Origin: Pseudomonadota bacterium
Lineage (GTDB): Bacteria; Pseudomonadota; Gammaproteobacteria; UBA1113
Direction of reading: 5' to 3'
NCBI GenBank assembly: GCA_021778015.1
Contig: JAJYCX010000007.1
Span: 17,078-81,077 of the forward strand
Length of the DNA: 64,000 bases
In this document: in pieces, positions 3,191-53,021 of the stretch
How positions within the stretch are numbered: position 1 is the stretch's first letter
Layout: every line of letters starts with the position of its first letter
The notes under the pieces: model-generated
Database searches by the model: none
Told to the model about the DNA's origin: nothing
Seen by the model: the letters and a program-made list of their open reading frames with translations, nothing else
Position numbers and translations under genes: made by a program

Positions 3191-3393
3191 TTAAATATAC
3201 TCCACAATATACCACTTATCCCCACTTTCATACACTATAGCCCACAGAATAGAGAAAAACAAGGGATTATGAGAAGATTTTTGAAATATTTTTTGTAGTA
3301 GATAGTTTTGGTTTTTCGTGTTATTCTTTTTAACATGAATAATAAATTCTTATTTTTGAAGTCGTGTGGCCTGTAATTCCCCCTTATAAAACA

Positions 3394-3416
3394 AATATTG
3401 CATAATTTGCAATATT
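3394..3416. promoter_or_regulatory. Perfect 9-bp inverted repeat AATATTGCA-N5-TGCAATATT. Putative operator of the downstream toxin-antitoxin operon.
   Basis: Seen directly. It lies ~20 nt upstream of the GAGG RBS and ATG of ORF 3438. Confidence 0.5.
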
Positions 3417-3437
3417 CCATAATGAGGTATATACTGT

Positions 3438-3728
3438 ATGTATTGGAATGTGCGATTTACAAATAAAGCGGCAAAGCAAGCACGCCAGTTAGATGCAGAA
3501 TTATTCTTTGTCTTGCAATTGCTAGCAGAAGATTTAAAAATGAAAGGGCCCATACCGGGTAAATTTTGGCATAACTATGGAAAGTTGAGCAGCAAAAATA
3601 ATCAGGATATAAGACATTGTCACTTAGCAAAAGGACATCCAACTTATGTATGCTGTTGGAAAGTGTTTAAGATAGAAAAGGTAGTTGAGGTTTACTATGT
3701 CGGAACACATGAGAAAGCGCCATACTGA
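3438..3728 (+). CDS. RelE/YafQ-superfamily mRNA-interferase toxin (HigB-like operon position, toxin first)
   Basis: 96 aa. The C-terminus …RHCHLAKGHPTYVCCWKV…VEVYYVGTHEKAPY resembles YafQ/RelE (H-x-L…W…Y…TGTH). It is followed by an overlapping HTH-XRE gene. Confidence 0.6.
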   Translation: MYWNVRFTNKAAKQARQLDAELFFVLQLLAEDLKMKGPIPGKFWHNYGKLSSKNNQDIRHCHLAKGHPTYVCCWKVFKIEKVVEVYYVGTHEKAPY

Positions 3729-4056
3729 TATTGCGGAAAAAATAGTCATCATATATTATCGTGGTGATTTATACCAGTTTCCTAAACAAATAGCTGAAAA
3801 ATACCGTGTTAAAAATGATAGTGTCAGCCCAGATGAATTATTTTCGGATATTAATAAAAAGCATACTAAATCAGGTGCTCTGCTCCGCGGATTGCGTGTT
3901 CGTGAGAATTTAACACAATCTCAGCTTGCAGAAAAGATAAAAGTTACTCAGTCCGATATTTCGCAAATGGAAAACGGTACTCGCAACATAGGGCGTATGA
4001 TAGCAAAACGGATTGAGAAATTGTTTGATATTGATTATCGTGTGTTTTTAGAGTAG
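3685..4056 (+). CDS. HTH-XRE antitoxin (HigA-like). The true start is probably at the internal Met 3697 or 3709.
   Basis: C-terminal LRGLRVRENLTQSQLAEKIKVTQSDISQMENGTRNIG is a classic XRE helix-turn-helix. It overlaps the toxin's 3' end. Confidence 0.6.
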   Translation: MRFTMSEHMRKRHTDIAEKIVIIYYRGDLYQFPKQIAEKYRVKNDSVSPDELFSDINKKHTKSGALLRGLRVRENLTQSQLAEKIKVTQSDISQMENGTRNIGRMIAKRIEKLFDIDYRVFLE

Positions 4057-4067
4057 AAGGCGGAACC

Positions 4068-4252
4068 TTGTCATCCTCAACCAGGCCACGAGGCCGCAGT
4101 CGGGGATCCAGTAAAAAACTTAATTTGAAACTGGATTCCCGACTGCGACTAGAGCCTGTCCTCGGTACTCCGGGGAATGACAAAGCTTCGATTAAAATCT
4201 ATAGCATTCATCAAGATCTCGCATCTTCAAGTACGAAGAGTATATAACCGCC
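4068..4252. repeat. REP-2 family composite palindromic element (copy F)
   Basis: gtcatcctcaaccaggccacgaggccgcagtcggggatccag…ctggattcccgactgcgac…ggaatgacaaagcttcgattaaa…atctcgcatcttca. It is shared with copies at 8116, 19234 and 22507. The tail contains cgaagagtatat, which is also the MITE-1 terminus. Confidence 0.65.
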
Positions 4253-5745: not shown

Positions 5746-5903
5746 AATCTCACCTTTCAGTTTAAAAGATTCATATCACTATTATCTAACATTTTCATTG
5801 GCAATACAAATAAAGTGTATGTTAACAAATATCCTTGATAGAAATATACTACAGAGCACTTTCTGTGATTTTCTTTTCTAGAACATAGCGTCGCATAATA
5901 CAA

Positions 5904-6167
5904 TTACGCCGCTATACTTAAAGTCACATGGATCTTTGCTCGCGCAAGCATAACCACCAACTTATCAATGGTAAATAGTTCAATATGACCAGCGAGTAGC
6001 TTATTAATTCTAGGCTGATCAACCCCCATAATTTTTGCAGCTTGCGCTTGGGTAAGCTTGTTTGTTTTAATGTATTTTTTAATGGCTAGCATAAGTTCAG
6101 CGCGTAGTTTTAAACTACTTGCCTCCGCGGGATCAAATCCAAGATCGTTAAATACATTGTGTGTCAT
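5904..6167 (-). CDS. HigA-family HTH antitoxin
   Basis: 87 aa. NVFNDLGF…LTQAQAAKIMGVDQPRINKLLAGH is typical of HigA-type antidote proteins. It is immediately downstream of, and overlapping, the toxin gene. Confidence 0.7.
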   Translation of the reverse strand: MTHNVFNDLGFDPAEASSLKLRAELMLAIKKYIKTNKLTQAQAAKIMGVDQPRINKLLAGHIELFTIDKLVVMLARAKIHVTLSIAA

Positions 6168-6505
6168 CTTTTTATCTCCTGCATTTTTTTAAACACTCCT
6201 TGATAACGCATTTTTGCAATATCAATATCTTTTTTTGCAGTTTGCTGTGTTTTCTTAACGAATGCATGTAAAACATGAATAGCACTTTCAAATTTAGCCA
6301 CATAAATAACGCGATATTCATTTTCAACATGGATCCTGATTTCTTTTACTCCTAAGCCAATCCCATGCATAGGCTTCCAATCGCTAGGTTCTTCACCTTT
6401 TTGTATATTAGACAACTCATATCCAGCACGGCGTCTAACATCAACAGGAAAATCACATAAATCCTTCCGTGAGGTTCCTTCAAAAACAAGTTTTTTCATT
6501 TTCAC
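6164..6505 (-). CDS. HigB/Gp49-like (RelE-superfamily) toxin
   Basis: 113 aa. …IRIHVENEYRVIYVAKFESAIHVLHAFVKKTQQTAKKDIDIAKMRY resembles the phage Gp49/HigB-like toxin family. The toxin gene precedes the antitoxin. Confidence 0.6.
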   Translation of the reverse strand: MKMKKLVFEGTSRKDLCDFPVDVRRRAGYELSNIQKGEEPSDWKPMHGIGLGVKEIRIHVENEYRVIYVAKFESAIHVLHAFVKKTQQTAKKDIDIAKMRYQGVFKKMQEIKR

Positions 6506-6525
6506 GGTTATACCACCCTAAAATT

Positions 6526-6550
6526 ATGTCATATTTGACATTAAATGTCA
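6526..6550. promoter_or_regulatory. Overlapping palindromes ATGTCA-tatt-TGACAT-taa-ATGTCA. Putative operator/promoter of the 6505-5904 toxin-antitoxin operon.
   Basis: Seen directly, ~20-45 bp upstream of the toxin start on the minus strand. Confidence 0.45.
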
Positions 6551-6738
6551 AGCTCATTAGGGGGATTTTTAGCTGTTAGTGCGTAATTATATGATTTTAT
6601 TGGATAAATATAAAGTAGGCGTCATTTTAAAATGGTACTCTAACGCTTTGATAAGAAGCTTCTCACTATAGCAACACTTGATCTACAAGAAAAATAGCAA
6701 TATACTATTATTATCATATTTAATCATGGTAATATTGA

Positions 6739-7629
6739 ATGATGAAAAACAGCATACATCTAGGCATCCTACTAACTTTATTAAGCGCATTGTCTTACGC
6801 TGTACAAACAGCTATTGTTAAACATTTAGGCGGCACAGTCTCTACCCCGGTCATTGTATTCATTCAAAGCGCGGTCTGTTTTGCGCTCATTTCTGCGGTA
6901 ATCATTTCTCAAGGTAAGCAAAAGGCCGTGCGCTTGATAAAAACAGCCCACCCCGTCATTCATATTTTTAGAACATTCTTTAGCCTAGGTATTAGTTACT
7001 TTCTATTTTATTCAGTTAAATTTATACCCTTAGTCGACGCGGTATTATTAGCCAATACAGCACCACTGATGGTACCTCTTATTATGTTTTTATTTATGTC
7101 TGTAAAGATTAATCATAAACTATGGGTGCCATTATTAATTGGTTTTTCTGGGGTAATATTGATTTTAAATCCAGATCCACAGGTATTTCACAGCGCTTCC
7201 TTGCTAGCATTGGCCGCAGGCGTATGTATGGCCTCTTCTATTATTCTAATTAGAGAAGCCAGAAATGACAGCGGTATAACGAACGCCTTTTACTATTTTC
7301 TATTTTCCCTCCCTATTTCAGGACTTGGTGCTGCATTTTTTTGGACTCCCTTGTCTATTAAAATACTCATCCCGCTGATTATCATCGGGCTATTATTTTT
7401 CATTGTACAGTTTTCTTTGACCTATGCGTTAAAACATGTCAATGCGCAAACTGTCGTTTCGTTGTATTTATCGAATATCATTTTTGCGGCCATTATTGGC
7501 ATGCTCATTTGGTCCACACCAATGACTTGGGGTATTATATCTGGAATATGTTTAACGATTATTGGAGCAATATTCACTATACGTGCGCAAAGTCAAACTA
7601 GAGAGGTTAAGATAGAAAAACATGGATGA
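6739..7629 (+). CDS. DMT-superfamily (EamA-like) transporter
   Basis: 296 aa with 10 predicted TM segments and the duplicated EamA pattern. Confidence 0.65.
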   Translation: MMKNSIHLGILLTLLSALSYAVQTAIVKHLGGTVSTPVIVFIQSAVCFALISAVIISQGKQKAVRLIKTAHPVIHIFRTFFSLGISYFLFYSVKFIPLVDAVLLANTAPLMVPLIMFLFMSVKINHKLWVPLLIGFSGVILILNPDPQVFHSASLLALAAGVCMASSIILIREARNDSGITNAFYYFLFSLPISGLGAAFFWTPLSIKILIPLIIIGLLFFIVQFSLTYALKHVNAQTVVSLYLSNIIFAAIIGMLIWSTPMTWGIISGICLTIIGAIFTIRAQSQTREVKIEKHG

Positions 7630-8056
7630 ACAAGATATTGAGTTTTTGATCTGCGATATCAGTGTATTGTGGCGGCGCGCATTTAGCCTACATACAAAGG
7701 AAATGGGGATTTCTACCATTGAACGTCGCATTATATTGAATGTAGACCGCAGACCGGGTGCAACTCAAGTTGAAATTGCTAATCTTATTGATATAGAACC
7801 ACAGAATTTAACCAAACCCTTAGATCGATTAATTGCGCATAAACTATTAGAAAAACGCTTGGATGATAGTGACCGTCGTGTCAAACGGCTCTATATTACT
7901 CAAAACTGTATGCCTATTATTAAAAAGATATGCCGCATTGCTGAGGACCTTCGACCAATGGTTATGGCCGGCATTAGCGAGAAAGACAAAAAAGCGCTAT
8001 TAAAAAATATTAGCGCTATGAAACATAGTTTAGAAGCAATCTGTCTAAAAAAGTGA
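7622..8056 (+). CDS. MarR-family transcriptional regulator
   Basis: 144 aa with winged HTH …GATQVEIANLIDIEPQNLTKPLDRLIAHKLLEKRLDDSDRRVKRLYIT. It overlaps the DMT gene by 8 bp, so the two are likely co-transcribed. Confidence 0.7.
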   Translation: MDEQDIEFLICDISVLWRRAFSLHTKEMGISTIERRIILNVDRRPGATQVEIANLIDIEPQNLTKPLDRLIAHKLLEKRLDDSDRRVKRLYITQNCMPIIKKICRIAEDLRPMVMAGISEKDKKALLKNISAMKHSLEAICLKK

Positions 8057-8115
8057 TATACCCATTCTACTTCAAGATATGGAGCAATACTTTCTACGAA
8101 CACCATACTAAAACG

Positions 8116-8266
8116 TTGTCATCCTCGACCGAAGGTCGGGGATCTAGTTTTATATTAAGTTTTCCTGGATCCCAGATCGGAACCTGTACTCGGTACTCCG
8201 GGTATCGAGGATGACAAAGCTTCGATTAAAGTTCAATGCGTTTATTCAAATCTCGCATCTTCATTG
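8116..8266. repeat. REP-2 family element (copy G)
   Basis: gtcatcctcgaccgaaggtcggggatctag…ctggatcccagatcgg…gtatcgaggatgacaaagcttcgattaaa…atctcgcatcttca. Confidence 0.65.
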
Positions 8267-8296
8267 GCGATGGAAATATTCAGAGACTTTCTAATT

Positions 8297-29036: not shown

Positions 29037-29113
29037 TGGTGCGCCCGGAGAGATTCGAACTCCCGACCGCCTGGTTCGTAGCCAGGTACTCTATCCAACT
29101 GAGCTACGGGCGC
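29037..29113 (-). tRNA. tRNA-Arg (anticodon ACG)
   Basis: The reverse complement GCGCCCGTAGCTCAGTTGGATAGAGTACCTGGCTACGAACCAGG…CTCTCCGGGCGCACCA is near-identical to E. coli tRNA-Arg(ACG). Confidence 0.9.
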
Positions 29114-29118
29114 ACACC

Positions 29119-29252
29119 ATCCATACTCTTCGCATTTGCTTCTTAGGCTTTGTTGCCTTCGCCCATCTCGCATCAGTCATGTAGGGTACTACACTCCTGA
29201 TGCTCGAGGACTCGGCGCCTCGCCTAAAAACCAACTGCTATGAGCATATCAC
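29119..29252 (+). repeat. MITE-1 family copy C, filling the tRNA-Arg/tRNA-Ser spacer
   Basis: ccatactcttcgcatttgcttcttaggctttgttgccttcgcccatctcgcatcag…caactgctatgagcatatcac. Confidence 0.7.
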
Positions 29253-29260
29253 TCTAAACG

Positions 29261-29353
29261 TGGTGGAGAGAGAGGGATTCGAACCCTCGATGAGGCTATA
29301 AACCCCATACTCCCTTAGCAGGGGAGCGCCTTCGACCACTCGGCCATCTCTCC
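29261..29353 (-). tRNA. tRNA-Ser (anticodon GCU), long variable arm
   Basis: The reverse complement GGAGAGATGGCCGAGTGGTCGAAGGCGCTCCCCTGCTAAGGGAG…GGGTTCGAATCCCTCTCTCTCCACCA. Confidence 0.85.
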
Positions 29354-34851: not shown

Positions 34852-35985
34852 ATGGTTCTAACATTGAAAACTAAAATCTCCCTTTTTCTGTTAGGCTTAG
34901 GCCTAACGTGTGGTTCAATTTACGCTGCACATGGCGATGAAACACCCCTACCGGTATCCAACGATATTAACGTCACCGCACCAGAACAATCAGGCATATG
35001 GTCTTTTGGCGTAACGGCAGTCCTCATGCAACCCGCCAATACGGGCTACAATTACGCTGATAGAACCAATGCTACTGTTCAATTCGCCGGCGGAAACCCT
35101 GTAGCGGAGCCGAGTAATAGCACAAAACCCCTAGTGCTGGATGAAAGCTATTATTGGTGGTTTGGCGCCGATGTGAGCTATGCTTTTCCCGGCAATGGTA
35201 GAGATGTCACCTTAGCGTATGAAGGCTTACACGGCACTAGCACTGACAGTGCCAGTAATAATTATAATAATGACGTACCTCAGCTTAGTGAATACCATCT
35301 TTTACTGAGTGCAATGACTGTCTATCCAATAACCTCTATCCAAGCTGAAACAGACACGCAATACGATGCGGGCGATCTACTCTTTGGCCAAAAATTAGAT
35401 GTAGGCCAGCGCATTCATCTACATCCCTTCATAGGTCTGCGTTATGCACATATCGATGTAAACAATAGCTTTAAGGATACTCTAGAACCTTTCCCTATTA
35501 CCGATAATGGTTATAATGGTGGCAATGAGAGTGGTGAGATAGACTGCACATTTAATGGCATTGGCCCACGCTTAGGCAGCGATGCTAATGTCACTTTGGG
35601 CAATGGTTTCTCTGTACATGGGCGTTTGGGTTTATCTGCACTGATAGGAAGCCAAAAATACAATGAAAGTTATACGCAAACAATCTTAACCAATAACGCT
35701 TTTACTCCACCAACCGTGACCTATACCAAAAACCAGGATAGCGACGCAGAGACGCGGGTTATTCCTGAAATTGATGGTCGCTTAGGATTGAATTATAGCC
35801 ATAGCACTGATTCCAATATGACCTTAGGTCTAGAAGCTGGTTGGCAAGTGACCGATTATTTTCAAGCAATTGCTAATCCAAGCCTAGTAAATGGCAATGG
35901 CAATTCCTTTACACCAGCCCGCCAAGGAAATACGGATTTCGGCCTACAAGGTCCTTATGCGCGCTTACAGTTAGATCTTGCATAG
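34852..35985 (+). CDS. Legionella-MOMP-family outer-membrane porin, paralog 1
   Basis: Signal peptide. WSFGVTAVLMQP, FNGIGPRLGSD…GNGFSVHGRLGLSALIGS, VIPEIDGRLGLNY and FGLQGPYARLQLDLA align by eye with L. pneumophila MOMP (OmpS). Confidence 0.75.
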   Translation: MVLTLKTKISLFLLGLGLTCGSIYAAHGDETPLPVSNDINVTAPEQSGIWSFGVTAVLMQPANTGYNYADRTNATVQFAGGNPVAEPSNSTKPLVLDESYYWWFGADVSYAFPGNGRDVTLAYEGLHGTSTDSASNNYNNDVPQLSEYHLLLSAMTVYPITSIQAETDTQYDAGDLLFGQKLDVGQRIHLHPFIGLRYAHIDVNNSFKDTLEPFPITDNGYNGGNESGEIDCTFNGIGPRLGSDANVTLGNGFSVHGRLGLSALIGSQKYNESYTQTILTNNAFTPPTVTYTKNQDSDAETRVIPEIDGRLGLNYSHSTDSNMTLGLEAGWQVTDYFQAIANPSLVNGNGNSFTPARQGNTDFGLQGPYARLQLDLA

Positions 35986-36025
35986 CTAGAATGTAACAAT
36001 TTATGAATAGGGATGATTTTTAAAG

Positions 36026-37120
36026 ATGAAAAATAAAATTTATTTAGCGCTATTGTGCGTGGCCTGCAGCTCAGCTTACGCCGCCCATGGTAATGAAGCT
36101 CCCCTACCAGTATCCAATGATGTGAATGTCACCGCACCAGAGCAATCCGGTGCTTGGTCTTTTGGTGTGACGGCCGTGTTGATGCAACCCACTAATAGCG
36201 GCTATGAATACGCAATTACCGATCAATTTAATGCAAACGATCCTATAGATCCTTCGGTTTATGGGGATACGATTAAAACTTCCATTCTGAATGAAAATTA
36301 CTATTGGTGGTTTGGGGCCGACATAACGTACGCTTTTCCAGGCAATAGCCGCGATGTGACTTTAGCATATGAAGGACTACACGGCACTACTACCGACAAT
36401 GCCAGCAATAATTTTAACAATGATGTCGCTCAAAGTTCTATTTACTACTCTTTAGTAAACCCTATTACAAATAACGATGTAGCTTCTATTCAAGCCGAAA
36501 CAGATACGCGCTATGATGCAGGCGATCTGCTGTTTGGCCAAAAACTCACTATAGGACAACGTATCCAGCTACATCCTTTCATCGGTGTGCGCTATACACA
36601 TATTGATGTGCAAGACAGTTTTAAAGATACCATGGAGTCGTTTCCTAGTGAAGGTGCTGAAGGAGGAAATGAGAGTGGTAACTTAGGCAGTACCTTCAAC
36701 GGCATTGGCCCGCGCCTAGGCAGCGATGCGGGTATTATTTTAGGCAAAGGCTTTTCCATACGCGGTCGTTTAGGTTTGTCCGCTTTGATAGGTTCTGAGA
36801 AAAGCAATTATAACTATGTTTCTACCTATTTGTTTTCACCACCCAGCACTATCGTTCCCTTTACACAGACCGTAAATCGCGATATTTCATCAAAGACAAT
36901 GGTCGTTCCTGAACTCGATGGCCGTTTAGGATTAAATTATAAACATAGCTTAAATTCTACTATGGACTTGGGTGTTGAAGCGGGTTGGCAGGCAACCAAT
37001 TATTTTCAAGTGATCAATGATCCGATGCTCAGTTCTCCTGGCGGCACACCAGCCCACGATAAATATTCCGACTTTGGTCTGCAAGGGCCCTACGCACGCG
37101 TACAATTGGATATTGCATAA
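36026..37120 (+). CDS. Legionella-MOMP-family porin, paralog 2
   Basis: Same conserved blocks, divergent surface-loop segments. Confidence 0.75.
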   Translation: MKNKIYLALLCVACSSAYAAHGNEAPLPVSNDVNVTAPEQSGAWSFGVTAVLMQPTNSGYEYAITDQFNANDPIDPSVYGDTIKTSILNENYYWWFGADITYAFPGNSRDVTLAYEGLHGTTTDNASNNFNNDVAQSSIYYSLVNPITNNDVASIQAETDTRYDAGDLLFGQKLTIGQRIQLHPFIGVRYTHIDVQDSFKDTMESFPSEGAEGGNESGNLGSTFNGIGPRLGSDAGIILGKGFSIRGRLGLSALIGSEKSNYNYVSTYLFSPPSTIVPFTQTVNRDISSKTMVVPELDGRLGLNYKHSLNSTMDLGVEAGWQATNYFQVINDPMLSSPGGTPAHDKYSDFGLQGPYARVQLDIA

Positions 37121-37133
37121 ACAATAAATAAGG

Positions 37134-38261
37134 ATGATTTCTAAAATGAAGACGAAACTTTTTGTAACGCTTTTAAGCTTAGGTTTGGTTTGCGGCTCAG
37201 CTTATGCTGCTGCGGGTAACGAAGCGCCCCTACCTATGTCCAACGATGTTAATATGACGGCACCGGATCAATCCGGCAGTTGGTCTTTAGGCGTGACAGG
37301 CGTTTTGATGAAACCCACTAATAGTTCCACTAATTATGCTACCCAATTTGATTACACTGTGGATAGTCATGGCAATCATACTAATACTACCACTACGCCC
37401 GAAACGGTAACAGCTGGCTATTATAAATGGTTTGGTGCCGATATCACCTACGCTTTTCCGGGTCATGGCCGCGATGTAACCTTAGCTTATGAAGGTTTGC
37501 ATGGTAGTTCAGCGGATAGTACCACCAATAATTTTGATAATCAGATTCCGCCCCCTGCTACCTATCATTATTTAACAGGCAATATTACTAGCGCAGATCT
37601 TTCTTACATTAAAGCTACAATCGATACACAATACGATGCAGCAGATCTGGTTTTTGGTCAAAAACTCAATGTAGGACAGCGCGTTCAATTACACCCTTTT
37701 ATGGGTTTACGTTATGCACGCATCGATATAGAACAAAAATTTAATGAAACTTTTGAAGCATTCCCCAACGATGGCAATTTTGGTGGTAATGCGGATGGTA
37801 AAGCTGACTCTACCTTCAGCGGCATCGGACCTCGCTTCGGCAGTGATGCGGGTCTTATACTGGGTCAAGGATTTTCTCTACGCGGTCGTTTAGGCTTGTC
37901 CGCATTGGTAGGTTCTCAACAATACACTGTAGCCTACAATCAAAACGTTATTGATAGAGATGTATTTAACTTACCTCCGACGTCGCATGAGTCCACCAAG
38001 ACACTGGATGATGGCTCAGTCACTCGTATTATTCCAGAAATCGATGCCCGCTTGGGTTTAAATTATACCTATAATTTTGCCTCTAAAACGGCGCTGGGGT
38101 TTGAGGCAGGTTGGCAAGCAACAGATTATTTGCAAGCAGTCAGCAATAATTCAGTTTCCAATACATCTAAAGACGATTTTGGTGTCGAGCCGCCACATTA
38201 TGAATATTCTAACTTTGGATTACAGGGACCCTATGCACGTATACAACTGGATGTGGCATGA
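37134..38261 (+). CDS. Legionella-MOMP-family porin, paralog 3
   Basis: Same conserved blocks, the most divergent of the three. Confidence 0.75.
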   Translation: MISKMKTKLFVTLLSLGLVCGSAYAAAGNEAPLPMSNDVNMTAPDQSGSWSLGVTGVLMKPTNSSTNYATQFDYTVDSHGNHTNTTTTPETVTAGYYKWFGADITYAFPGHGRDVTLAYEGLHGSSADSTTNNFDNQIPPPATYHYLTGNITSADLSYIKATIDTQYDAADLVFGQKLNVGQRVQLHPFMGLRYARIDIEQKFNETFEAFPNDGNFGGNADGKADSTFSGIGPRFGSDAGLILGQGFSLRGRLGLSALVGSQQYTVAYNQNVIDRDVFNLPPTSHESTKTLDDGSVTRIIPEIDARLGLNYTYNFASKTALGFEAGWQATDYLQAVSNNSVSNTSKDDFGVEPPHYEYSNFGLQGPYARIQLDVA

Positions 38262-52716: not shown

Positions 52717-52762
52717 TATACTACCGCTTCTGTGAAGTAAGTTCTTCTAGCAAGAAAATAGC

Positions 52763-53008
52763 CGTCCCCGTCATTGCGAGCAAATGAGTGCTGGATACAT
52801 AATAGAAAATATGTACTATAGCAACAGTAGAATGATTAAGTTGCACTAAGCTAAACGAGTGCAGCGCGGCAATCCATCGTTTGAATAATGAAAATGAACG
52901 CTATATACAGTAAAAATCATAAAACACTGTGAGTGTTATAAATTGAATATTTTACTGGATTGCCACGCCTGTTCGCTGCGCTCACTGGCTCGCAATGACG
53001 GACTCCGT
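52763..53008. repeat. ~245 bp nested palindromic element between convergent ptsO and pmbA
   Basis: The outer arms are ccgtcattgcgagc-aaatgagtgc and gcgctcactggctcgcaatgacgg. The inner arms are gagtgcagcgcggcaatcc and ggattgccacgcc…gctgcgctcac. Confidence 0.6.
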
Positions 53009-53021
53009 TGCAAAGAATATA

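Follow-up and report, generated by a model that had tools for sequence, protein, structure and literature searches.

What kind of element are the REP-2 repeats, the composite palindromes that lie between genes in a 64,000-nucleotide stretch (hereafter the window) of contig JAJYCX010000007.1 from the Pseudomonadota assembly GCA_021778015.1? The original prediction described four copies, each a pair of hairpin modules bounded by 12-mers and followed by a conserved tail. Our analysis makes it likely that REP-2 is instead a family of non-coding, non-autonomous miniature transposable elements with inverted repeats (MITEs) in various states of decay. The family belongs to known kinds, namely MITEs with a repetitive extragenic palindrome (REP) core and Ssn-related hairpins, and is not a new kind.

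The repeat family itself is genuine, and the four copies are present where they had been placed (c1 at 4068-4252, c2 at 8116-8266, c3 at 19234-19321 and c4 at 22507-22643). With up to two mismatches, GTCATCCTCGAC occurs 12 times in the window against 1.78 expected, a count reached by none of 100 shuffles, and 8 of the 12 matches are the paired ends of c1-c4. Alignment of all copies (MAFFT and pairwise) gave core identities of 53-86% and showed that c3 lies on the other strand, in the opposite orientation to c1 and c4. All four were recovered by an nhmmer profile of the full-length copies (E = 8e-53 to 2e-12), and an independent detection of direct repeats paired c1 with c4 and c1 with c2 (families D9, D10, D15 and D18). 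A layout-based scan of the 64 kb found seven hairpin modules, every one of them within REP-2 and none outside. The cores folded at z = -4.1 to -7.1 as single-stranded DNA and at z = -4.8 to -7.6 as RNA, and in neither case did any shuffle equal them. Enrichment, alignments, direct repeats and folds against shuffles thus contradict the possibility that the copies are unrelated low-complexity hairpins. Element sizes range from 88 to 227 bp, with four copies and one divergent relative in the 64 kb, and the open reading frames (ORFs) inside them are short and incidental only. Rfam at its gathering threshold returned two tRNAs only, blastn in distant mode against plasmids with c4 and the element of locus L064 as queries gave no match, and a literature search with core and terminus strings yielded nothing relevant.

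The intact element extends well beyond the palindromes. Two copies, c2 (~8056-8282) and c4 (~22444-22657), are full length and have the form of a MITE of ~215-230 bp, with terminal inverted repeats of ~30 bp (25-32 bp) that have the consensus TATATACCCAATACACTTCAAGATGCGAG and start with TATA(TA)C. We set these extents because the outer left arm, TATACCCA(A/T)T..ACTTCAAGAT, is the inverted complement of the supposed tail, and because the terminal arms of c4 pair with each other in a fold of 22443-22659. The arm lies upstream of the cores at 8057 (TATACCCATTCTACTTCAAGAT, c2) and 22446 (TATACCCAATACACTTCAAGAT, c4), and its pattern matched three times in all (8057, 22446 and, inverted, 22634-22655) against 0.00 expected. 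The tail is therefore the right terminal inverted repeat of a MITE, whose left partner is present in c2 and c4 and in elements of two other genomes (L064 and L231, alignment A2), and the description of REP-2 as bare palindromes no longer holds. As to the sequence of this tail, cttcgattaaa is present in c1 and c2 only, and the part conserved in c1, c2 and c4 is atctcgcatctt.

AT-rich linkers of ~35 nt separate the terminal repeats from a GC-rich core, which consists of one hairpin module present twice in inverted orientation, 5'-(T/C)GTC-AT[7-nt stem]-loop-[stem']AT-C(C/T)(A/T)G-3'. Both modules (..GGATCCAG and CTGGATCC..) are found in each copy, as first described. Their loops either measure 3-5 nt or hold nested small modules, these being a GGCC-GCGA-GGCC hairpin in c1-left, c3-right and c4-left, and CCGGAGTACCGAG in c1-right and c2-right. 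The bounding 12-mers are exact at both ends of c3, but carry 0 and 1 mismatches in c2, 0 and 2 in c4, and 1 at the left of c1, whose right end is degenerate (GGGGAATGAC). The right stem of c4 reads TCTCGCC/GGCGGGA against the consensus CCTCGAC/GTCGGGG, a difference of two doubly compensated pairs, which points to selection acting on each local hairpin and not just on the long palindrome.

Of the two full-length copies, c2 (plus strand) starts directly after the TGA of a MarR-family gene (8054-8056) and ends 14 nt before the stop of an MFS gene (8297-8299). It comprises a left terminal inverted repeat, ATATACCCATTCTACTTCAAGATAT (8056-8080, plus), a left hairpin arm, TGTC-ATCCTCGAC-CGAAG-GTCGGGGAT-CTAG (8117-8147, plus), followed by TTTTAT, a right hairpin arm whose loop holds a 26-nt inserted module (8165-8217, minus), and a right terminal inverted repeat that reads inward TGAATATTTCCATCGCCAATGAAGATGCGAGATT (8249-8282, minus). 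Copy c4 (plus strand) fills the gap between def and acrB, and is made up of the left terminal inverted repeat TATATACCCAATACACTTCAAGATGCAAG (22444-22472, plus), the left hairpin arm TGTC-ATCCTCGAC-[17-nt inner hairpin]-GTCGAGGAT-CCAG with 9/9 positions paired (22506-22548, plus), the right hairpin arm TGTCATTCTCGCCGAAGGCGGGAATCCAG (22566-22594, minus) and the right terminal inverted repeat, inward TATATAGCGATTACACTTCAAGATGCGAGATC (22626-22657, minus).

The other two copies are reduced. Copy c1 (4068-4246, plus) retains the core, right linker and right terminal repeat and has no outer left arm. Its right boundary was placed by comparison with the related locus L126 at ~4240-4246, and not at 4252 as first drawn. 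Its left hairpin arm, TGTC-ATCCTCAAC-[17-nt inner GGCC hairpin]-GTCGGGGAT-CCAG, lies at 4069-4111 (plus), and its right hairpin arm, TGTC-ATTCCCC..-[26-nt inserted module CCGGAGTACCGAGG..]-GTCGGGAAT-CCAG, at 4131-4184 (minus); the local stem of the latter is degraded, yet it pairs with the left arm. The right linker (gcttcgattaaa..) and a right terminal repeat of variant B, inward TATATACTCTTCGTACTTGAAGATGCGAGATC, occupy 4185-4246 (plus), and L231 has the same variant. Copy c3 (19234-19321, minus) is a small form, a core without terminal repeats, with a palindrome that reaches 19226-19329 via GCGCAT/ATGCGC.

Placement at gene 3' ends, also part of the original prediction, was seen for every copy, but c3 lies 3' of bioY and at the same time 5' of the next gene, which encodes a response regulator. 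The remaining copies (c1, c2 and c4) stand between convergent genes, and some border on or reach into them: the TAG stop of def (22440-22442) directly precedes c4, the TAG stop of acrB (22651-22653, minus strand) lies inside the right terminal repeat of c4, and the right arm of c1 supplies the TGA stop (4227-4229) and last codons of a truncated FUSC_2 ORF on the minus strand. The copies thereby account for the altered C-termini of FUSC_2 and AcrB and for several spurious short ORFs. The FUSC_2 ORF beside c1 is a deletion remnant of 146 aa, compared with 322 aa in L126.

Such positions also raise the possibility that the repeats are regulatory hairpins of the host, acting as two-directional terminators or mRNA stabilisers, conserved for function and not mobile. 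In its favour, three of the four stand between genes that converge, folding is very stable, and the left arm of c2 with its T-run scores as a terminator; that arm is the only one with the look of an intrinsic terminator, however, as c1, c3 and c4 have no T-tract. The terminal inverted repeats also argue against a purely regulatory origin, as does the comparison with other genomes, in which orthologous sites of close relatives lack the element or hold different ones in its place and the same element stands beside unrelated genes in L064. We consider this explanation very unlikely.

Matches to the window proteins came from ENA and Logan metagenome assemblies only, among them L119 and L120, with 100% identity to the window. 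At the level of contigs, the window matches ERZ27236853 k141_890009 and ERZ27236847 k141_136548 of ENA. Compared with named species, RsmH reaches at most ~57% identity, the nearest named relatives overall reach ~55-62%, and Def is ~61% identical to that of Candidatus Berkiella; ankyrin proteins and three tandem Legionella_OMP paralogs are also encoded in the window. The host is accordingly a gammaproteobacterium without a cultured representative, close to Legionellales and Berkiella, and not Coxiella burnetii.

Three sites, those of c1 and c3 and the one that follows def, differ among the relatives (L126 and L226-L233) in whether they hold REP-2, and copies thus come and go between close relatives. 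L126, whose RsmH is 90% identical, lacks c1, with homology resuming at window position 4241. The c3 site of L226 is occupied by a mini version of 35 nt, with a loop identical over 30 nt to the right arm of c2, and L227, L228 and L230 have no element there. The site after def, which holds c4 in the window, is occupied in L226 (3478-3545, Def 98% identical) by a 64-bp element that has TTATATACCCAA in common, followed by a different hairpin, in L227 (10511-10645, Def 93%) by a copy of a second family, MITE-1 (CTTATATACTCTTCGCGATTGAGCTTTAGGC..), and in L231 (6514-6712, Def 78%) by a ~190-bp element of REP-2 type with the same linkers, terminal repeats of variant B and arms with ATTGC/GCAAT stems. 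Nothing is inserted there in L228 (10514-10531) and L229 (Def 88%), in L230 (5309-5330, Def 83%), where acrB is a relic, or in L232 (6511-6562) and L233 (Def 75%). L064, a metagenome-assembled genome of Legionellales, holds a near-perfect full-length copy in an unrelated gene context (DNA fold z = -16).

Just behind the def stop lies a hot spot for insertions, where seven lineages have REP-2 of variant A or of variant B, MITE-1, a short element or nothing. The gene downstream of this site varies as well, being acrB, a GmrSD-domain gene, an NTase/HEPN-like pair, a histidine kinase or others. A further REP-like family, a repeated hairpin of the form TAGGGCAGGC-loop-GCCTGCCCCTA, was found at L226:3498-3525 and L228:~7365-7395 and was not seen in the window.

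At the right junction of c1, the window reads acgaagag followed by TATATAACCGCC, where L126 has ggtacttt followed by TATACAACCGCC. A TA target-site duplication is compatible with c1 (judged by the empty site of L126), c2 and c4, although no clean pair of filled and empty sites was found. The differences from L126 are larger than the repeats: the window has extra blocks at 3295-4240 and 5759-8287, with c1 and c2 each at one edge. The first block contains a 96-aa ORF without a Pfam match, an HTH_3 gene and c1, and, going by arrangement only, might be a toxin-antitoxin pair; the second contains a HigB/HigA-like pair (Gp49 and HTH_37), EamA, MarR and c2, and has a short direct repeat on either side, (T)TAGAAAG / CTGAAAG.

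Copies at the edges of blocks absent from L126, one with a HigB/HigA-type pair and the other with an HTH_3 gene and a 96-aa ORF, are what one might see if REP-2 were a set of recombination sites of mobile gene cassettes, comparable to the attC sites of integrons. The copies contain no GTTRRRY/RYYYAAC core sites, however, and the window has neither an integrase nor a cassette array; no such block adjoins c3 or c4, and the blocks carry no second copy at their other edge. Given the lack of core sites and of an integrase, we rejected this reading, which we consider extremely improbable.

The second family bears on how REP-2 may have moved. MITE-1 is ~130 bp long and is present in the window at 1321-1450, 14669-14797 and 29121-29249, with the termini TATACTCTTCGCATTTG..CTTAGGC; an internally deleted short form of ~65 bp lies at 59025-59089, and single ends without the rest of the element are found at 58359-58408 and 9862-9911. 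The copy at 29121-29249 occupies precisely the interval that separates two tRNA genes (29040-29113 and 29264-29353), and an AhpC-like gene (58406-59011) is flanked by one of these single ends and the internally deleted form. Relatives have MITE-1 at other sites (L122:4678-4803 and L227:10517-10643).

It had been proposed that the tail of c1 ends in the MITE-1 terminus and that the two families share a mobilising enzyme or recombine. REP-2 termini occur as variant A, TATACCCAATACACTTCAAGATGCGAG, and as variant B, represented by TATATACTCTTCGTACTTGAAGATGCGAG at the right end of c1 and GATATATCTTCGCACCTGAAAATGCGAGAT at the left end of the L231 element. Compared with the MITE-1 termini, TATA(TA)CTCTTCGCATTTG, variant B has its first 13 nt in common, with partial matches to ~17 nt, and the remainder of variant B is common to variant A. 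The resemblance thus stands as a match of 13-17 nt inside the element, but the final TATAT of the 12-mer first reported is host sequence or a TA/TATA duplication, because the empty site of L126 reads TATACAACCGCC. With at most one mismatch, CGAAGAGTATAT occurs five times against 0.31 expected, and four of the five are MITE-1 ends. We also considered the c1 terminus as a recombinant of REP-2 and MITE-1, and dropped this idea when the same variant proved to be a normal REP-2 terminus in L231. With common termini and a common insertion site after def, a transposase shared by the two families, recombination between them, or both are plausible, although no enzyme was found.

We then turn to the hairpin arms, whose layout recalls the targets of Ssn, a GIY-YIG endonuclease of ~94 aa (cd10448) that binds the NTS hairpin CGTCATTCCCGCGMAVGCGGGAATCYRG only as single-stranded DNA and cuts a few nucleotides upstream of it (Chenal 2025, PMC11893778). 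In that study, the C just after the palindrome was most important for binding and the 3 nt upstream of the palindrome for cutting; Ssn homologs had motif variants of their own, such as NTSvar, CGTCATACTCGGG-N5-CCCGAGTATC; ssn genes were often flanked by the motif; and the targets, among them dRS3 of Neisseria, included the wider class of Ssn-related motifs (SRM) (PMC11893778). The published SRM pattern, HGTCWYN(0-2)YYVSBRHN(0-5)WNVSBRGN(0-2)RNCYNB, describes an oriented hairpin of 20-50 nt with a 5' HGTCWY and a 3' RNCYNB flank.

All eight arms of c1-c4 have (T/C)GTCAT .. ATC(C/T)(A/T)G around the stem, in the same register as NTS. Set against NTS, CGTC-ATTCCCGCG-MAV-GCGGGAAT-CYRG, the left arm of c2 likewise has GTC on the 5' side, an AT..AT palindrome and C(Y)(R)G on the 3' side, and none of the 8 arms departs from NTS at the positions found critical by mutagenesis, namely the 3 nt upstream of the palindrome and the C that follows it. 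Stems vary between lineages in REP-2 as they do between NTS and NTSvar. The strict pattern was matched by one arm of the eight, the right arm of c4 (22566-22594, minus strand), which is the sole match in the window against 0.09 expected. From this likeness, we hold it possible, at somewhat less than an even chance, that the REP-2 arms are Ssn-related motifs that would be bound when single-stranded by a GIY-YIG endonuclease of Ssn type and cut a few nucleotides upstream.

Searches beyond the relatives showed how widespread such hairpins are. The pattern GTCATCCTCRAC-N(1-30)-TCGRRGATC gave at least 137 matches in a genome collection, and L064 was the only true family member among the matches listed. 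In 63 of these 137, GATC is followed by CAG, where a simple 1-in-64 estimate would give ~2, and for 24 an inverted partner lies no more than 130 nt away. Three matches from unrelated phyla (L090, L098 and L109) have GIY-YIG ORFs of ~100 aa (PF01541, E ~1e-16) at 25-190 bp from identical GTCATCCTCGAC hairpins. The GTCATCCTCGAC-loop-TCGRGGATCCAG hairpin was seen, among the matches listed, in Nitrospirales, Alphaproteobacteria, Mesorhizobium, Hyphomicrobium, Fibrobacter, Patescibacteria, Bacteroidota and others (for example in L042, L054, L062, L075, L087, L092, L052, L100 and L025), and a frequent doublet combines the GTCATCCTCGAC hairpin with a partner, CTGGATTCCCG-loop-CGGGAATGAC, in the same pairing as in c4.

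A metagenome search with ACTTCAAGAT-N(30,48)-GTCATCCTCGA listed 79 matches, 64 of which have one fixed 46-nt spacing in high-GC coding sequence; the examples inspected presumably represent one conserved gene, possibly GAPDH. There was no REP-2 family member among the matches listed, except for a doubtful small element in L209. This element (~108-225, ~115 bp) has terminal inverted repeats TATAGACTTCAAGAT / ATCTTGAAGTCTATA and one GTCATCCTCGAC without a hairpin partner, and may be distantly related to the REP-2 framework.

Inverted hairpin doublets that recur in other phyla might point to another origin. REPINs are reportedly hairpin-forming REP doublets mobilised by RAYTs (REP-associated tyrosine transposases), and RAYT-associated REPs typically have a GTAG or GTGG tetranucleotide head. 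The REP-2 cores could accordingly be read as REPINs copied by an IS200/IS605-like RAYT, with the outer inverted repeats incidental: two short palindromes stand inverted around a ~20-nt spacer and fold as one long hairpin, they are intergenic and often between convergent genes, and a core-only form exists in c3. We nevertheless regard this as quite unlikely, as the arms start with GTCA and not with GTAG/GTGG, no Y1 transposase is encoded in the window, and the ~30-bp repeats outside the doublet, superfluous in a RAYT model, are conserved in four elements from three genomes. The REP of Coxiella, too, has the GTAG head (Wachter 2018, PMC5896051).

We return to the interpretation of REP-2 as a MITE family with Ssn-related arms, against which several observations must be weighed. 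No clean empty site was found: c1 and c2 differ from L126 by whole gene blocks, and at the c4 site ~15 bp of ancestral sequence is missing, L226 has another element and L230 only an acrB relic. The copies known from the 64-kb window number only four to five. Among the ORFs of the window, we found no transposase, integrase, Y1 or GIY-YIG domain, and no locus retrieved contained a transposase that would mark an autonomous parent insertion sequence with REP-2 termini. A regular expression for GIY-YIG, which recovered three positive controls (L090, L098 and L109), found no such ORF in ~150 kb of relatives, making none in ~214 kb with the window included, so that the link to Ssn comes from motif layout alone. 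Seven of the eight arms fall outside the strict SRM pattern because of their CCTCGAC stem or long loops (up to 26 nt, with nested hairpins), and a terminator role is suggested for one arm only. Recognition by Ssn, moreover, depends on stem sequence and not on shape alone (PMC11893778).

Under the MITE interpretation, REP-2 would have been spread in trans by a transposase recognising the TATAC.. termini, probably the same enzyme as that of MITE-1 given the 13-17 nt in common at the terminus, and insertion would probably take place at TA. Copies would then have decayed into one-armed and core-only forms, and recombination between copies may later have exchanged internal modules. When single-stranded, the arms might be recognised by a nuclease of Ssn type, a step we deem possible but short of probable, and suggested because determinants shown to matter for Ssn, GTC on the 5' side and C on the 3' side of the palindrome, are kept. 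In place, the copies would mainly form stable two-directional hairpins between convergent genes.

A bolder extension, which we judge rather unlikely, is that one MITE framework of TATAC termini and linkers is the vehicle in which lineage-specific doublets of Ssn-recognition hairpins travel and multiply. At the same post-def locus, the same framework has CCTCGAC-stem arms here and ATTGC-stem arms in L231, and the termini common to MITE-1, with its unrelated cargo, would imply the same TA-targeting transposase. If true, this would offer a concrete route for the multiplication of SRMs in genomes, which the Ssn paper left open. Should an ssn gene and a matching transposase exist in the host, the spread of nuclease target sites and the reshaping of gene ends, including donated stop codons and placement at the edges of variable gene blocks, would become testable.

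Three further features of the window relate to these repeats or to repeat detection. A composite of ~305 bp at 52717-53021 (plus strand, profile E = 0.006) is a probable fifth, divergent REP-2 relative by its sequence: its termini start with TATAC, its arms read CGTC-ATTGCGAG..GGCAAT-CCAG, with an ~85-nt insertion in the left-arm loop, and it takes up the whole interval from the stop of an upstream ORF (a candidate HPr by synteny with L231) to the stop of PmbA. Arms of this ATTGCGAG type also occur in L231 and at L126:2715-2826 and L126:8305-8349. A lone 14-mer, TTGTCATCCTCGAC, that had been noted in the coding sequence of a 656-aa ORF is present, but at 16894-16907 (plus) and not at 16897-16910, and it lacks a complementary arm and does not fold into a hairpin; an exact 14-mer has a simple expectation of ~5e-4, and this one may be a relic or chance and was not counted as a REP-2 copy. 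Finally, the repeat families D1-D4 are accounted for by 34852-38261, where three paralogs of the Legionella major outer-membrane protein family (PF05150), with 65-79% DNA identity, follow one another in tandem.

Among known systems, we first hypothesised membership in QMITE2 of C. burnetii, a family that measures 150-190 bp, has a GTAG REP core between terminal inverted repeats and exists in both full and small forms, is found at gene 3' ends with an overlap of a few bases with stop codons, is targeted by IS1111 and has direct repeats of 7-11 bp (Wachter 2018, PMC5896051). C. burnetii DNA was located via DUF1658 peptides (supplement of PMC5896051); QMITE2 of the Dugway strain (L145) reads GGGTGCGATTGAAAGTG..GTAGCCCGTATGAAGCGAAGCGGAATACGGG.. 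with GGGTGCGATTGAAAGTG as terminal repeats and the core GTAGCCCGTATGAAGCG.., and that of RSA 493 (L139) is interrupted by IS1111. REP-2 resembles QMITE2 in being a MITE with terminal repeats around a REP-type palindrome, in having full and small (REP-only) forms, and in its location at gene 3' ends with stop-codon overlap in an intracellular host of Legionellales type. The two differ in sequence, as the GTAG core and the GGGTGCGATTGAAAG terminal repeats of QMITE2 have no similarity to REP-2, and with every REP-2 copy as query, blastn (word size 7, E <= 0.1) found 0 matches in 20 C. burnetii loci. They also differ in that QMITE2 has 7-11-bp direct repeats and is a hot spot for IS1111, whereas no insertion sequence was seen in the window and no IS110-family gene near any copy. 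The analogy to IS1111 insertion in Coxiella therefore holds for architecture only, and membership in QMITE2, for a host whose nearest named relatives are at ~55-62% identity, was rejected and has next to no probability. Beside the QMITE2/IS1111 site, upstream of uvrC, the C. burnetii loci contain a degenerate doublet, TTGTCATCCCGCGCAGGCGGGAATCATCCAG ... CTGGGTTCTCGCCTCTAGGCAATGA (L145:1085-1200 and L139:1098-1215), with a REP-2-like layout and no match to the strict SRM pattern. Because its layout is the same, this doublet suggests that hairpins of Ssn type may also occur in Coxiella.

Correia elements (CREE/NEMIS) of Neisseria are MITEs of 100-155 bp with terminal repeats that start with TATAG and insertion at TA; they are abundant beside genes and can end or begin transcripts. 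REP-2 is likewise a small, gene-adjacent MITE with terminal inverted repeats that start with TATA, but the sequences are unrelated, Correia elements have no central GC-rich hairpin doublet, and TA duplication is putative in REP-2. Inverted doublets inside a MITE with terminal repeats are not described in the Ssn paper either, from which the words MITE and Correia are absent. REP-2 thus links two described kinds, the REP-palindrome MITEs exemplified by QMITE2 and the Ssn-related hairpins, in an uncultured Berkiella/Legionellales-like lineage: it presents hairpins of Ssn type that are paired in inverted orientation and enclosed by the terminal inverted repeats of one element, with the hairpin stems swapped between lineages at one locus and a second family, MITE-1, bearing the same termini.

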